Made by a program: the position numbers and the translations under genes
Source: a virus
Lineage: Duplodnaviria; Caudoviricetes
Length of the DNA: 25,534 nucleotides
Virus record (IMG/VR): IMGVR_UViG_3300037422_000108
Span: 1 to 25,534 of that record
Strand: one strand, 5' to 3'
Shown here: positions 18,387 to 23,804 of the stretch, in pieces
Layout of the letters: every line of letters starts with the position of its first letter
Numbering within the stretch: position 1 is the first letter of the stretch
Notes under the pieces: model-generated
Seen by the model: the letters and a program-made list of their open reading frames with translations, nothing else
What the model was told of the DNA's origin: nothing
Database searches by the model: none

Positions 18387-21344
18387 ATGCCAGACCTGGC
18401 GTCCCTGCCGGGGACTAAGCCAAGATTTTCGCAATCATTCGGTGGGTTCACCGGGTTTGGACAGCATGACGACTTCGGCCTGAGGTCGCAGGAGCCAGGC
18501 CCGGGGTCCCTGGTGCTGGACAAGCGGGACCTGAGGAAGCCAGAGAACGGCTTTTTGGCAGTGCTGGATGCCCTGAACCGGGGCCAATATCTAACCGCTA
18601 ATTCCGCAAGGGCTCTTTTCAACACAGAGGACCTGGACCCGGTGGGGGCTCTATCTGGAAGCCGCAAGAGTTCATTTGAGGACGTGGCAGACGACCTTGG
18701 CTTTACGGGCGTGCCGAAGAAGGCTCTTGGTTTTTTTGGCAACGTCGTGCTGGATGCCGGGAACCTAGTGGGGCTAGGCGCAGCGACAAAGGCCATGAAG
18801 GCGGCGCTGACAGCGCAGAAGTACGGAGTGAAGAATCTAGCCGACCTAGCGGAGTTGGCCAAGGTCAACAAGTCCGTGGCTAACGAGCTGCAGGTTGCCA
18901 TAAACAGCAAGATAGACATTTTCAGGCCCATCGGAAAGACGCTTGAGGCTCAGGGGGAACTGGGCCAGAGGGCTCTGGTTACCGTGGCCGGCCAGCCCGT
19001 CCCATACGTGGACGTGCTTACTAAGCCGGCCATGAAGTTCCTAACCAGGACAGGGCAGAAGTTCAGGGGCACAAACTTCGGAAAATTCACAAGCAAGATA
19101 TTCAGCACAGGGACGGGCGACGAAGCCTTTGACGACCTGACGAGAAGTTCCATGAGGCTGAGGCGGGCGGCAAAGTTGGCGGCCTGGGAGGCCAACGCGC
19201 CATTTATGGAAATGGCCTCAAGGTTCACGCCGGATGACCACAAGATGTTCTCCCATCTTTTACAGGTGAAGGGGCAAAGGGCCAACGAGGAGCTTGTCAG
19301 GTTCCTGACTGGCAAGGGCGTCAGCATTGTGAGGAAGAAGGGAATCCCGATGCGGCTGGGGGCCAACATAATGCAGAGCGTCCCCCTGACTCGGCCGGAG
19401 GCGGAAAAATACATCAAGAGCGCAAGGGAGATGACGGAGTTCCTTCTGCAGAAGGACTTGGCTGAGGGCTTGGACATTCAGGACCTGGGGGATGTAGTGG
19501 AGTACCTGCCTCAGAAGCTTACGGAGAAGGGCCAGGGCCTAGTGGGCAGGGCGATGGGATTCCCTGAGGACATCAGGAAGTGGAACATGAGCCACACCGC
19601 GGCCATGCACAGGCAGTTCAGGGGCATGACCTCAGTTCAGTGGAACGACCTAGCCAAACGCGAAGGGGTACACATAAACGGAAGGCCAACCGGGAAACTT
19701 GACTTTGACCTATTTGAAACAGACGTGCCTTCCTTGCTGGCCCAAAGGTACTACCAGACGACATCGGCCATGGTCAGCAGGTCGTACCTGCGCGAGGCGG
19801 CTGACAATTTTGGACTGCCATTTGAGAAGTCGCCAACGGACTGGGTGAAGGTGGACAACCCTTACCTGGAGGGGTTCGCCTTCCCGCCAGAAAAGGCAGA
19901 GGTCATAGACGAGCTGTTCAACAAAGGCATGGGCGATGAGGACATGAACAACGCCTGGGGGTTTATAAAGGCCGTCAACAGCCTGTGGCGCACAACGACC
20001 CTGGCTCTATTTCCCGCCACCTGGGGTAGGGACCTGCTGAGCAACACGTGGACCTACGGCATCAGCGGACACATGAACAACCCAGGGGCTTTGGCAAAGG
20101 GATTCAAGATTTCAAGCGACATTTTTTTGGACAGGGTTGAGTATGGACGCATAGGCCGCGACCTGTTCAACACGGCGGAATTGAAGGGCTTGGGCAAGGA
20201 CGTGGTCGCAAGGCACATCGACACGCAACAGCCACTGTACTACGGCGGCAGGATTCTAAACGGCGACCACATCGTTGAACTGAGCAAGAAGCTAGGGGTG
20301 ACTGGCAGCGCTTTCGCAGAGCAACTGGAGAGGGCCAAGTTCACAACGGCATACGTGAACGGAAAGGCCAAGAAAGTGCTGAGGGAAGCCAACCCGTTCA
20401 GCCAAAACTTCCTGCCATACAAGGGTGGGATGGCTATTAGGGAGCACGTCGTTGACGACCCCTACCGCCTGGGGATGTTCATTGACGGCCTTGAGCGGGG
20501 CATGGACCCGGAGGCCGCGGCGGCTGAGGTGAGGAAGTGGTACTACGACTGGTTTGACCTGACCAAAGCTGAGCGCAACGTGCTGCGAGAGGTTTTCCCT
20601 TTCTACGCATGGCTGAGAAAAAACCTGCCCCGCCAGCTGGAGATGCTGACGGAAACCCAGAGCATTTTTGGTATGCCGGTAAGGGGGGCGGTAATACCTT
20701 TGAAGGTCAAGCAGTCCGTAGAGCGGGACCAGATGATAAGCGACCCGAGGTTTGTGCCTCAGTGGATCAAGGACGGGACGCCTATTCAGATCAGGCGCGA
20801 CCCGGTCACGGGCAAGACCAGCTACATGATTCTTAATGGCTGGCATCCATCGGCGGACATCGCTAGGATTTTCGACCCAAGGGGACTCTTTGTGGGACAG
20901 CTAAACCCATTCCTGAGGGAAGCCATGTCGCAGGTAGCAAACTTCGACCTGAACTACAAGAGGAAGCTTGAAAGGTTCCCTGGTGAAATGGTTGAGTTCT
21001 TCGGTATGCCGATGCAGGGCCGGGTGACCCACGCCTTGAGAAACATCAGGATTCTGAACGAGGCCGACCGAATGATATTTGGGAAACACCTGCCGCCAGA
21101 GGTAAGGCTAAGGGGTGTCGTGCCAACGTCAGCCAGGTCTGTGGACATCGAGGCCGAGGCTTCCAAGCGCCTAAGGGAAATAGAGCAGGAGCTGGCCTTT
21201 GGGACTGGAGAGTCCAGGAGGGCGATGGCCTTCTACAAGAAGGGTATAAGGCCAGAGGCTTCGATGAAAAACCTTGAGCTTCTTGAGAGGAAGGCCATGG
21301 AGCTGCGAACCGAGCGGGATGCTATTGTGTCGGGGACCAGATGA
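18387..21344 (+). CDS. Large internal virion (ejectosome) protein
   Basis: 985 aa, last of the ejection-type genes; 'GNVVLDAGNLVGLG', 'WRTTTLALFPATWGRDLLSN', 'RLGMFID', 'LTKAERNVLREVFPFYAWLRKNLP.QL' resemble conserved segments of large podoviral core proteins. Confidence 0.7.
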   Translation: MPDLASLPGTKPRFSQSFGGFTGFGQHDDFGLRSQEPGPGSLVLDKRDLRKPENGFLAVLDALNRGQYLTANSARALFNTEDLDPVGALSGSRKSSFEDVADDLGFTGVPKKALGFFGNVVLDAGNLVGLGAATKAMKAALTAQKYGVKNLADLAELAKVNKSVANELQVAINSKIDIFRPIGKTLEAQGELGQRALVTVAGQPVPYVDVLTKPAMKFLTRTGQKFRGTNFGKFTSKIFSTGTGDEAFDDLTRSSMRLRRAAKLAAWEANAPFMEMASRFTPDDHKMFSHLLQVKGQRANEELVRFLTGKGVSIVRKKGIPMRLGANIMQSVPLTRPEAEKYIKSAREMTEFLLQKDLAEGLDIQDLGDVVEYLPQKLTEKGQGLVGRAMGFPEDIRKWNMSHTAAMHRQFRGMTSVQWNDLAKREGVHINGRPTGKLDFDLFETDVPSLLAQRYYQTTSAMVSRSYLREAADNFGLPFEKSPTDWVKVDNPYLEGFAFPPEKAEVIDELFNKGMGDEDMNNAWGFIKAVNSLWRTTTLALFPATWGRDLLSNTWTYGISGHMNNPGALAKGFKISSDIFLDRVEYGRIGRDLFNTAELKGLGKDVVARHIDTQQPLYYGGRILNGDHIVELSKKLGVTGSAFAEQLERAKFTTAYVNGKAKKVLREANPFSQNFLPYKGGMAIREHVVDDPYRLGMFIDGLERGMDPEAAAAEVRKWYYDWFDLTKAERNVLREVFPFYAWLRKNLPRQLEMLTETQSIFGMPVRGAVIPLKVKQSVERDQMISDPRFVPQWIKDGTPIQIRRDPVTGKTSYMILNGWHPSADIARIFDPRGLFVGQLNPFLREAMSQVANFDLNYKRKLERFPGEMVEFFGMPMQGRVTHALRNIRILNEADRMIFGKHLPPEVRLRGVVPTSARSVDIEAEASKRLREIEQELAFGTGESRRAMAFYKKGIRPEASMKNLELLERKAMELRTERDAIVSGTR

Positions 21345-21997
21345 CCACACCGACCCCGGAGGCCACAGACTACAGGAAGAAGGACTGGCTACCATACTTT
21401 GACCCGGTCCTAGTCCTGCCTGACAGGTGCGTATGCCCACCGACCAGGGACACCTTCAATGTTGACGCATGGCTGGCCATCAACGGTGGGACGCTTTACA
21501 AATATAAGGACCAAGCCACAGGCGAAACCGCAGCGCAGAGCATAGAACGCGCAGCGGACTCGGCGGGTGTCAGCAGGAGATTATTGCTGGTGACCCTGCA
21601 GAGGGAACAGAGCCTTGTAAAGACCAAGGCGACTCTTACCCAGTACAAAATGGACAGGGCCTGCGGCCAGGCGGTTTTTGACTCAAGGCCAACGGACTCA
21701 TTGGCGGTGCAGGCGCGCCGAGCTGAGATAACGGCGCGCAACAAGGGATTTAGAAATCAGCTTTTTGGAGCTGCGGTGACCTACGCCAAGAGGTTCAAAG
21801 AGTGGATCCCGGGGACGCCAATCAAGGTGAACTACAGCAACGGCGAGGACCCTATGACGGTGTCAGACGACAGCTGGGAGGTAAGGGTTCCGAACAACGC
21901 TGCGACGTGGGCCCTGCTGAGGTACACGCCGCATGACGTGGCAAGCCGTGTCACCAGAGATATTTGGAGAGGCTTCTTTGGAACAGGAGTGGTTTGA
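21341..21997 (+). CDS. Putative endolysin (lysozyme-like peptidoglycan hydrolase)
   Basis: 'IERAA..GVSRRLLLVTLQREQSLV..ACG..GFRNQL..AA..PNNAATWALLRYTPH' resembles a lysozyme-like family (LLxxLQKEQxL...ATxALYxYTP) with a candidate catalytic Glu; followed by holin- and spanin-like genes. Confidence 0.7.
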   Translation: MTTPTPEATDYRKKDWLPYFDPVLVLPDRCVCPPTRDTFNVDAWLAINGGTLYKYKDQATGETAAQSIERAADSAGVSRRLLLVTLQREQSLVKTKATLTQYKMDRACGQAVFDSRPTDSLAVQARRAEITARNKGFRNQLFGAAVTYAKRFKEWIPGTPIKVNYSNGEDPMTVSDDSWEVRVPNNAATWALLRYTPHDVASRVTRDIWRGFFGTGVV

Positions 21998-22020
21998 GCG
22001 ATTTGGGGTAAAATTATGGT

Positions 22021-22092
22021 CGCGGGAGGCAGGGCTTAGAGTCCGGGGGCGCTCATACCGCTCCGATCCGGGTGCGAGTCCCGGTCCCGCAA
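22021..22092 (+). tRNA. Divergent tRNA-Met(CAT), initiator-like (tRNA-like RNA or pseudo-tRNA)
   Basis: Acceptor C-GCGGGA/TCCCGC-A-A (C1xA72, A73); anticodon arm GGGCG-CTCATAC-CGCTC (CAT at 22054-22056); T arm CCGGG-TGCGAGT-CCCGG; atypical D arm GGGC-TTAGA-GTCC; no encoded CCA. Confidence 0.7.
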
Positions 22093-22113
22093 AACTTACG
22101 AAAGGGGACAACC

Positions 22114-22422
22114 ATGTGGAGTTCAATCGTAGGCGGGGTTGTGAAAGTTGTGGGATTGGTGGGGTCGCTGAGCAAGGACACAAAGGGCAAGGCTGGCGAG
22201 GTTGTTGACCGGCATTTGTCCAAGAAGTTCAGCGCCGCGGCAGGGCTTCTGCTATGGCTGTCTCAGGCGCCTCTGCCTGAGGACATGAAGGCCAAGTACA
22301 TGACGTACTTGGGCGCAGCCTACTTGTTCATGCAGGGGGTGGTTGACGCCGTAGAGAAATTCACCGGGCGAAAGCTGAACCTGCCCAAGATGCCAGGGGC
22401 GACACCAGCCGGACCCGCTTGA
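22114..22422 (+). CDS. Putative holin
   Basis: ATG 22114 after AAGGGG (ORF-track start 22072 would overlap the tRNA). Hydrophobic segments 'SKKFSAAAGLLLWL' and 'MTYLGAAYLFMQGVVDA' fit the SRKF...YxxxQGxxD small holin pattern; lies between endolysin and spanin-like gene. Confidence 0.7.
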   Translation: MWSSIVGGVVKVVGLVGSLSKDTKGKAGEVVDRHLSKKFSAAAGLLLWLSQAPLPEDMKAKYMTYLGAAYLFMQGVVDAVEKFTGRKLNLPKMPGATPAGPA

Positions 22423-22973
22423 ACGAGAAGGACAAGCTTGCGGTTGGTCTAATCCTGGTGGCCCTGCTGGCCGGGGCCGGCCTATTTGGGACTTGGCGCG
22501 GGTGTTCGGCGCTGAAAGAGGCGGAGGACGAGAAGGCCGCGCTGAGGATAGAGGCCGCTACCGCCAACGCCAACAAGCTCAGCGCCGAGAGGAAGTTGAA
22601 ACGGGCTCAGCTCATGTCCGGGCCCACGACCAGGATTGTCGAGGTCGTGCGGGAAGTGGAAAGGCAGGACCCGGGCGACTCAGAGGGGCCAGGCTGGCTA
22701 GGTGAGCAGCAGGAATCCGTGTGGCTTGAAGCCGGACAACCAGCGCCATTCCCGGGCCTGCTGATGCCGAAGGACACAGCCGCAAAGGCCGCTGCGGACA
22801 TGAGCCAGGTTGCCAAGCTGGAAGGTGAGAACGCTGGACTCCTTGGGCAGATGAAGGAGCTGGACAGGAAACGGCTGAGAGCCGAGTCCAAGGCCAGGGG
22901 CTGGAGGATTGGCGGCTTCGCCGTGGGGCTTGTTGGGCTGACGGCGGCGGCTGTAGAGGCTTTGCTGGACTGA
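22419..22973 (+). CDS. Spanin-like protein with N- and C-terminal hydrophobic anchors
   Basis: TTGA overlap with holin; N-terminal TM ending 'TWRGC', coiled coil, 'TTRIVEVVREVE', 'LEAGQPAPFPGLLM', second coiled coil, C-terminal 'WRIGGFAVGLVGLTAAAV'. Confidence 0.6.
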   Translation: MNEKDKLAVGLILVALLAGAGLFGTWRGCSALKEAEDEKAALRIEAATANANKLSAERKLKRAQLMSGPTTRIVEVVREVERQDPGDSEGPGWLGEQQESVWLEAGQPAPFPGLLMPKDTAAKAAADMSQVAKLEGENAGLLGQMKELDRKRLRAESKARGWRIGGFAVGLVGLTAAAVEALLD

Positions 22974-22979
22974 GGGGGG

Positions 22980-23333
22980 GTGAGTTCCACGCTTCACGGA
23001 TACCACAGGCGCATGATGGGAAAGCCCATGAGTCACGACGGCGGCATGGCCAGGGCCATGAGGCAGGTGCAGAGGCAGGCCAGAAGGGCAGGCTTCGACC
23101 CTGGCCCGGGCATGTCCTCAAAGGCCATGCACAACCCAGGCCGTGGGGGGCAGAAGTCAACGAGGTACTGGATTAAGGGAACCATCAAGCATCCGGGGGC
23201 CCTCCACAGGCAGTTGGGTGTGCCGATGGGAAAGAGGATCCCGGCGGGAAAGCTGGCCAGGGCGTCAAAGGCTGGCGGGAAGTTAGGCCGCAGGGCACGG
23301 CTAGCCATGACCCTCAAAGGCTTCCACAGATAA
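22980..23333 (+). CDS. Small highly basic protein (putative DNA-binding/core protein)
   Basis: C-terminal 'WIKGTIKHPGALHRQLGVP.GKRIPAGKLA.A.K.GGKLGRRARLAMTLKGF' is a conserved basic domain I recall from uncultured phages; start codon uncertain (several downstream ATGs). Confidence 0.75.
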   Translation: MSSTLHGYHRRMMGKPMSHDGGMARAMRQVQRQARRAGFDPGPGMSSKAMHNPGRGGQKSTRYWIKGTIKHPGALHRQLGVPMGKRIPAGKLARASKAGGKLGRRARLAMTLKGFHR

Positions 23334-23355
23334 GAACCGCGAGTCGAGGAAGGAA

Positions 23356-23388
23356 AGGGCCCTGCCTAGGCAGGGCCCTGCTGTTTTT
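23356..23388 (+). terminator. Probable intrinsic terminator ending the late operon
   Basis: Perfect 24-bp palindrome AGGGCCCTGCCTAGGCAGGGCCCT (23356-23379) followed by GCTGTTTTT. Confidence 0.7.
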
Positions 23389-23533
23389 GGGGTATCCGGG
23401 TGCTACTACAAGCCTGCACAGACCAGGGCCAGGGCTCCAAGGCGGTGTAGGGGTGGCCTGTTTTGACCCAAGGTAGCCAAAAGCTCAAACTTCTGCAGGG
23501 ATGGGCCTCTAAAATTACCAAGTAAAATTTAGC

Positions 23534-23562
23534 TTGACAGATACCAAGATGGTAATTACCAT
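23534..23562 (+). promoter_or_regulatory. Sigma70-type early promoter overlapped by operator-like repeats
   Basis: TTGACA (23534-23539) - 17 nt - TACCAT (23557-23562); palindrome ATGGTAATTACCAT (23549-23562); AAGGAG SD before ATG 23583. Confidence 0.8.
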
Positions 23563-23582
23563 GTAGGCAGAAAAGGAGAAAC

Positions 23583-23804
23583 ATGGGCGACAGGGTGACC
23601 ACGACAAGAGCGGCGATGGATGAGTTTGGGGTATCCCGCAAGACTCTGTACAACATGACGACCCGCCTTGGGATTATTCCGAGGATTGTCAAGCGAGGCA
23701 GAAAAACGCCGACCAACGGCTACACCGAGGCCATGATGGACCAGCTACGGGCAGACCTAAAGCCAGTAGGAAGGCCAAAGAACAAGGAGGAAGTGAATGC
23801 CTGA
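23583..23804 (+). CDS. HTH DNA-binding protein (MerR/Xis-like)
   Basis: 'TTRAAMDEFGVSRKTLYNM..RLGIIP...YTEAMMDQLR' MerR/excisionase-type HTH; 'GRPK' AT-hook-like tail. Confidence 0.8.
   Translation: MGDRVTTTRAAMDEFGVSRKTLYNMTTRLGIIPRIVKRGRKTPTNGYTEAMMDQLRADLKPVGRPKNKEEVNA

Follow-up and report, generated by a model that had tools for sequence, protein, structure and literature searches.

A phage late-operon tRNA of initiator type with a rebuilt core and a flipped anticodon-stem pair

The window analysed here is the whole of the IMG/VR record IMGVR_UViG_3300037422_000108 (25,534 bases), a contig estimated to hold about 38% of its genome. It encodes a terminase, a portal, a major head protein and an SU10-type adaptor and therefore belongs to a tailed phage, and among annotated capsid proteins the closest share only about 27% identity with its own. 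Every gene from 42 to 23333 lies on the + strand, and the late-gene run that contains the tRNA described below is ended by a terminator-like hairpin of 10 bp (23356..23379, + strand). The sole sigma-70-like promoter in 21300-23700 is found beyond this hairpin, at 23534-23562. An A/T-rich inverted repeat stands just upstream of that promoter, a small HTH/excisionase-like gene follows, and 23500-23562 is likely to be an early control region. The window was found in one freshwater metagenome run, which may be the source sample itself; a 751-nt Logan contig spans the tRNA with no differences, and no RNA run was among the runs containing it.

Upstream of the tRNA lies an ORF of 218 amino acids (21341..21997, + strand) that is likely to encode a lysozyme-like peptidoglycan hydrolase, that is, an endolysin. 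Together with its eight homologues it makes up a small uncharacterised family of nine sequences with an invariant Glu89, and no Pfam or PHROG model was found for them. The AlphaFold model (pLDDT 80) points the same way, as lytic transglycosylases and glucosaminidases head the list of Foldseek matches (best E 0.049; no match reached E <= 0.001). Downstream of the tRNA, a Shine–Dalgarno-like purine-rich run (22101..22107, + strand) precedes the ATG at 22114 of a 102-aa ORF (22114..22422, + strand), which is holin-like by position, has weak hydropathy and no Pfam or PHROG match, and has a similar small ORF as its counterpart at this place in a related cassette, L066. The next ORF, of 184 amino acids (22419..22973, + strand), may be spanin-like: its hydropathy peaks, at residues 7 and 164, mark a hydrophobic segment at each end, and neither a homologue nor a family match was found for it. 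Of the lysis cassette assumed in a preliminary description of this DNA, the endolysin is likely, whereas 'holin' and 'spanin' are names drawn from position and hydropathy, with no family matches. A very basic 117-aa ORF closes the late-gene run at 22980-23333, where L066 has a different basic ORF.

The tRNA gene itself occupies 22021..22092 on the + strand (72 nt to the discriminator, A73). It is of initiator type, tRNA-Met(CAU), as judged from its sequence, from ARAGORN, which assigns it to tRNA-Met(cat), and from two models (R1 and R3), and it forms a four-armed cloverleaf with a 7+5 acceptor branch around a rebuilt core. All of its parts lie on the + strand. The 5′ strand of the acceptor stem (22021..22027) pairs with 22085-22091, with a C1xA72 mismatch followed by G2-C71 and C3-G70. 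Comparison with homologues indicates that a 4-nt connector, GGCA (22028..22031), replaces U8-N9, so that position 8 is G. The minimum-energy fold and compensatory changes in homologues place a shifted D hairpin at 22032..22044, with 4 bp (5 with a U-A pair) and a short loop containing A18 (22038) and G19 (22039); A14 is absent, and by straight numbering the R11-Y24 positions are A-C, although in a shifted D stem these need not be the equivalent pair. The anticodon arm (22046..22064) has 6 bp including an added G26-C44 pair, and its stem contains G29-C41, C30 (22050)-G40 (22060) and G31-C39 below a 7-nt loop with C32, U33, the CAU (22054-22056), A37 and C38. A 3-nt variable loop, defined by comparison with the family (22065..22067), leads to the T arm (22068..22084), the loop of which reads TGCGAGT (U54, G55 at 22074, C56 and A58). 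CCA is not encoded. The acceptor features, CAT anticodon, G-C/C-G/G-C stem, C38, T loop and missing CCA all agree with the preliminary description, as does the ARAGORN result that it had proposed as a check. It had also listed U8, A14 and G18G19 as missing; U8 and A14 are indeed absent, but G19 is there, preceded by A at position 18. To its account we add the G26-C44 pair and the variable loop of 3 nt.

The reality of this tRNA rests on its homologues, because neither folding energy nor the standard Rfam model supports it. The minimum-energy fold is the cloverleaf, and the shifted D register beats the canonical register by 6 kcal/mol. However, the folding energy is no better than that of shuffled sequences (z -0.97), and the D and T stems reach a probability of only 0.27 in the folding ensemble. 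Rfam RF00005 (gathering threshold 29 bits), the score of which had been suggested earlier as a check, gave no match in the window and at its gathering score missed all nine relatives tried (7/7 viral and 2/2 cellular); it does find six ordinary tRNAs in the loci of the relatives, at 46.7-73.7 bits. Under model R1 the window tRNA scored 56.5 bits, and under R3, a covariance model built from nine viral homologues with the window excluded, it scored 71.1 bits and came first of 91 sources, the best ordinary tRNA reaching 56.1 bits. A sequence-only profile fails to separate it from ordinary tRNAs (27.3 vs 27.6 bits). RNAalifold on 12 sequences predicts the same fold, with 13 of the 22 consensus pairs changed on both sides. 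The covariation and the ranking under R3 both support the earlier view that the tRNA is remodelled and not decayed.

The homologues lie on nine other IMG/VR contigs and carry compensatory changes. The starting point was L207, a match from a U55 control scan that has the D arm of the window tRNA. Searching IMG/VR with the D-arm pattern gave nine loci: six of the same layout (L486, L489, L491-L494), one variant (L490) and two chance matches. A second pattern, with the anticodon and acceptor left free, gave 25 loci, comprising 18 chance matches and seven cloverleaves, four of them found again and three new (L501, L513, L516). All seven have CAU and an unpaired 1-72, albeit under a pattern that was derived from CAU members and that cousins with other D arms could escape. 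The shared layout consists of G8G9 opening a connector of 4-5 nt, a D stem of 4-5 bp, a short loop with 18/19, one unpaired base, a 6-bp anticodon stem and a 3-nt variable loop. The combination of G8G9, a Watson–Crick 26-44 pair and a 3-nt variable loop occurs in a single one of 263 distinct initiator-type tRNAs from four sets, itself a member of the family.

Identity of the window tRNA to the eight parsed viral members is 64-73% (L489 was dropped by the parser, its pair 53-61 being A-U). The GGCA connector is identical in seven of the nine viral homologues, with one extra base in L486 and a variant in L489. An unpaired 1-72 with invariant pairs 2-6 is found in 13/13 parsed family rows, and so is a G-C, A-U or C-G pair at 26-44. 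CCA is encoded in only one of the ten viral members. U55 is kept in 8/9 viral homologues, so escape through the T loop is not a family trait. The D loop of the window tRNA is one base shorter than in most homologues, and the changes private to it are paired double changes (A18/G55, C30/G40 and A7-U66). Taken together, the comparisons indicate that the window tRNA is an intact gene and that its family, initiator-type tRNA-Met(CAU) genes in which the core is rebuilt, is small and conserved. Some further variation was seen in these scans. The anticodon loop in L513:2494-2566 has U32, G37 and G38 and could close to a 3-nt loop, and in five viral initiator-type tRNAs that lack U8 (L085, L107, L170, L223, L465) the D stem is longer and capped by a loop of 4 nt. 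Short D loops occur in 14/28 initiator-type tRNAs without U8 vs 18/235 with U8.

The window tRNA begins 23 nt after the stop of the hydrolase ORF, and 21 nt separate A73 from the start of the holin-like ORF. A TAAAAT hexamer at 22009..22014 (+ strand) had been likened to a -10 element. The sequence does not support it as a promoter: the promoter search gave no match there, the -35 region agrees at no more than 2/6 positions, 12 such hexamers occur on the + strand of the contig, and upstream of nine homologues no -10-like hexamer was better than 3/6. It is probably part of an A/T-rich leader.

Several of the features that look odd in the window tRNA are ordinary in phages. IMG/VR was scanned for an initiator acceptor, a CAU loop and G55, which gave at least 120 loci (about 320 estimated), 89 of them distinct and 80 passing the cloverleaf filter; the U55 control gave at least 121 loci (about 2,600 estimated), of which 110 were distinct and 100 passed. 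The same G55 scan of GTDB yielded at least 120 loci, of which 116 were distinct and 51 passed, many of them from Patescibacteria by record title. Among the matches listed, the D loop reads AG in 76/80 viral G55 tRNAs vs 1/100 with U55, and GG in 94/100 of the latter; AG is also found in 48/51 of the GTDB G55 set. Furthermore, 5/5 Patescibacteria genomes checked gave no initiator-type match besides the A18/G55 tRNA. Because AG tracks G55 and stands alone in these genomes, A18 with G55 is, on this comparative evidence, a compensated elbow that appears compatible with service as a house initiator. Again among the matches listed, the full three G-C pairs are present in 0/80 viral G55, 18/100 viral U55 and 5/51 GTDB G55 tRNAs; CCA is missing in 5/80, 32/100 and 34/51, and G30-C40 is kept in 75/80, 96/100 and 51/51, respectively. 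Incomplete G-C pairs, G55 and a missing CCA are thus common among phage initiator-type tRNAs, and of the oddities to which attention had been drawn the sequence comparisons leave the rebuilt core and C30-G40 as the rare ones.

The flipped C30-G40 pair is private to the window tRNA, which therefore has neither the three G-C pairs nor G30; 12/12 other parsed family rows, and L489, keep G30-C40. Its three pairs at 29-31/39-41 are identical to those of an engineered E. coli tRNA-fMet, the 'mid CG' mutant (GC/cg/GC) of Shetty et al. (PMC5389676). According to that report, 'mid CG' is charged and formylated, enters 70S complexes and keeps more IF3 in them, but its initiation is by and large lower and it cannot sustain E. 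coli; mutants without G30 are toxic in a metZWV deletion, and G30 is essential in E. coli. The mutant has a canonical body in E. coli, whereas the pairs of the window tRNA are natural and sit in a rebuilt body. By analogy, C30-G40 would make the window tRNA a weak initiator on ribosomes of the E. coli type.

Other viruses carry the same flip. In IMG/VR the pattern C30-G31/C39-G40 matched 47 loci (43 distinct sequences), among which L434-L480 hold 34 distinct viral initiator-type tRNA-Met genes that form clean cloverleaves with otherwise canonical bodies. The exact three pairs of the window tRNA occur in 18 of these, and 20/34 have no other tRNA near them in up to 6 kb. Their settings include a portal, a terminase and an Acb2/Tad1-type anti-defence gene, the last lying about 80 nt downstream of the tRNA (L473:2487-2720). 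In cells, the C30..G40 pattern was found in 0/201, 0/151 and 0/151 genomes of three phyla (503 genomes sampled from GTDB), where a G30 control pattern gave matches in 3/5. In a GTDB sample of five more phyla, a pattern allowing either base matched 193/305 genomes, all with G30 when read by eye.

Folds like that of the family are also found in cells. Among 151 Patescibacteria genomes, 83 gave an initiator-type match (84 matches), every one with G30; 14 of the matches have G55, all of them with AG (both read by eye). Two matches, G103 and G125, have a family-like core. In their order, 11/13 genomes matched, and in four of these, which are incomplete genomes, a tRNA with the core and A18/G55 is the only initiator-type match. 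These family-like tRNAs encode CCA, have A-U or C-G at 26-44 and score 52.5-60.9 bits under the viral model R3. At the two loci checked, the tRNA lies between divIC and ftsH-polA, and next to it stands another CAU tRNA, an ordinary one in which the first position is paired. The simplest reading of these sequences is that the rebuilt core can serve as the initiator of a cell. We regard the Patescibacteria fold as analogous to that of the phage family and leave common ancestry out of the claim.

Compared with bacterial initiator tRNA-fMet (E. coli metZWV/metY), the window tRNA has in common the acceptor (C1xA72, G2-C71, C3-G70, A73), C32-U33-CAU-A37, the 7-bp acceptor and 5-bp T stems, U54/C56/A58, G29-C41 and G31-C39. 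It differs in lacking U8, A14 and CCA, in its 4-nt connector, shifted D stem and short D loop, in G26-C44, the 3-nt variable loop, A18/G55, C30-G40 and C38, and in escaping RF00005. Its core also bears a resemblance to tRNA-Pyl, the anticodon of which is CUA, although this is a likeness of layout from which we claim no homology, and no pyl-type family was found among the 27 ORFs scanned in the window. As described in PMC11764691, tRNA-Pyl likewise has a 6-bp anticodon stem, a 3-nt variable loop and a 5-nt D loop, but it has one base between the acceptor and D stems and lacks U54/C56, whereas in the window tRNA the connector is four bases long, the anticodon is CAU, the acceptor is of initiator type and the 19-56 contact is intact.

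Phage tRNA-fMet genes and anti-defence phage tRNAs are already known (PMC12429752; PMC11555353). The former include the lone tRNA-Met/fMet(CAU) in small temperate tailed phages described for phiLM21-like prophages (PMC12429752), to which the window is similar. The anti-defence tRNAs reported so far (PMC10264068, and the T5-like tRNA-Tyr that acts against retron-Eco7, PMC11555353) differ from those of the host near nuclease sites, as the window tRNA does. However, those that these reports describe are canonical cloverleaves, and the T5-like tRNA-Tyr depends on a strong promoter of its own, whereas the window tRNA has a rebuilt core and no supported promoter. Novel cloverleaves of other kinds have been reported (PMC5389517).

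We tentatively favour a role for the window tRNA as a spare initiator that is cut from the late mRNA, charged, formylated and resistant to nucleases. The tight spacing and the lack of a promoter suggest that it would be transcribed together with the late operon and excised by host enzymes, through RNase P and 3′ trimming, the pathway by which tRNAs are processed. Other host enzymes would then add CCA, methionylate it and formylate it. All of the bacterial Met identity elements listed in Table 1 of PMC9976931 for the anticodon loop, together with A73, G2-C71 and C3-G70, are present, and so are the main formylation determinants, which include a mismatched 1-72, G2-C71 and C3-G70 (PMC11231383). 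Because the fold is strictly tied to CAU and an open 1-72 pair, it is presumably seen by MetRS and the transformylase.

Host defences that cut tRNAs would be expected to recognise the spare initiator poorly. tRNA-fMet is a target of VapC, which cuts it in the anticodon stem-loop, and of AtaT (PMC7180214; PMC8522696), and the Cash nuclease depends on U54 and U55 (PMC13462974); the window tRNA differs at positions 30, 38, 40 and 55, at or near known nuclease sites. Since C30-G40 would make it a weak initiator, any benefit would come late in infection, when host tRNA-fMet is depleted. The preliminary description had offered a cleavage-resistant substitute or a decoy. Both are plausible, and the substitute is the better reading, although we stop short of calling it probable. 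Counting against it are the 'mid CG' data, G30-C40 in the rest of the family, the scarcity of encoded CCA, the A-C that straight numbering gives at R11-Y24, the low ensemble probability of the D and T stems, the indifferent sequence-only profile, the retention of U55 by most homologues and the report by van den Berg et al. (PMC10264068) of a general avoidance of tRNA-fMet genes among Shigella phages.

Alternatively, the tRNA might be matured, charged and formylated but non-productive, either stalling 70S complexes or acting as a decoy for toxins specific to tRNA-fMet. The behaviour of 'mid CG', which enters 70S and retains IF3 without sustaining the cell, would suit such a poison, as would the toxicity of G30-lacking mutants when initiator tRNA is scarce (PMC5389676). 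So would the viral distribution of C30-G40, a clean double change in 34 tRNAs, often lone and in one case beside an anti-defence gene, and its absence from the 503 genomes searched, with G30 throughout the matches in further genomes. However, a phage most needs initiation late, when the window tRNA would be expressed, and the toxicity was seen, in that report, only in the deletion strain. Furthermore, a decoy should retain the sites that toxins recognise and not alter them, and the family fold goes with G30 in all other members. On balance we consider this reading unlikely.

A role in cis is doubtful as well. Here the tRNA would be a tRNA-shaped cut site for RNase P and 3′ nucleases that splits or stabilises the late mRNA and sets the ratio of upstream to downstream proteins, in the window that of endolysin to holin and spanin. 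The close spacing on both sides would fit, and in three related phages (flanks 70-80% identical in nucleotides) the tRNA lies 8-28 nt after the major capsid stop, with 28 nt between the tRNA and the next start. Moreover, 7/9 homologues have genes for head, packaging or lysis functions around them, most members lack CCA, and the elbow contact of 18/19 with 55/56 is kept. But a cut site needs neither CAU nor a mismatched 1-72, both of which are found in 7/7 anticodon-free cloverleaves, and cutting may be a by-product of maturation. The slot also varies. The tRNA lies between terminase and portal in L513, with a cement gene upstream and a holin-like ORF downstream in L486, 9 nt after a holin-like ORF and downstream of an amidase in L492, upstream of a terminase-like ORF in L501, upstream of head genes and beside a tRNA-Thr in L494, and inside a tRNA array in L489. 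Because the neighbours differ, it is placement in a late operon that recurs and not the lysis slot. L066, whose hydrolase is 64% identical, has its genes in the same order but no tRNA; a 124-aa ORF of no known family (L066:3334-3708) stands there between hydrolase and holin-like gene. The predicted accessibility of the Shine–Dalgarno run (0.57-0.62) is unchanged by the tRNA. These results, with only 2/9 homologues adjoining holin-like genes, support neither the conserved position before the holin nor the signal for lysis timing that had been envisaged earlier. Beside the family tRNA and tRNA-Thr of L494 there is also a match to a tmRNA fragment (L494:5325-5401).

It is improbable, in our estimate, that all of these strands combine into an undescribed class of initiator that has a tRNA-Pyl-like core and escapes the Rfam tRNA model, a house initiator in a Patescibacteria lineage and late-operon cargo in phages, of which the window tRNA would be a dominant-negative, virus-only form that, though charged and formylated, stalls initiation complexes or absorbs toxins. 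That the tRNA is a drifting or dead copy, either a decaying family member or an attachment-site remnant, is very improbable: the missing RF00005 match, the shortened D loop and its absence from the close cassette relative L066 would fit, but all stems pair, the private changes are paired double changes, it ranks highest under the leave-one-out model R3, no stretch of this whole gene of 11 nt or longer recurs in the contig, the 27 ORFs scanned in about 38% of the genome include no integrase, and the genomes searched contain no host-type tRNA of this sequence.

This work describes a natural tRNA core that is supported by covariation and missed by the standard Rfam tRNA model, and such genes are therefore likely to be under-counted in phages and small bacteria. 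In the open literature covered, we found no description of the rebuilt core or of natural C30-G40 initiators. The G30 rule of E. coli initiation can now be tested with natural sequences, as the window tRNA and 34 other phage genes flip this pair while G30 is kept in every cellular gene seen in these samples. Whether such tRNAs work as spares, decoys or poisons is relevant to the question why initiator tRNAs are found in phages at all.

Two minor observations concern the Patescibacteria loci. The non-canonical initiator-type tRNA of the four genomes of one order lies at L520:3200-3271 and L521:3248-3320 and in L526 and L529, and RF00005 missed both of those tested. In addition, L520:5396-5473 and L521:1555-1629 each hold a tRNA-Ile, the anticodon of which, UAU, is uncommon in bacteria.
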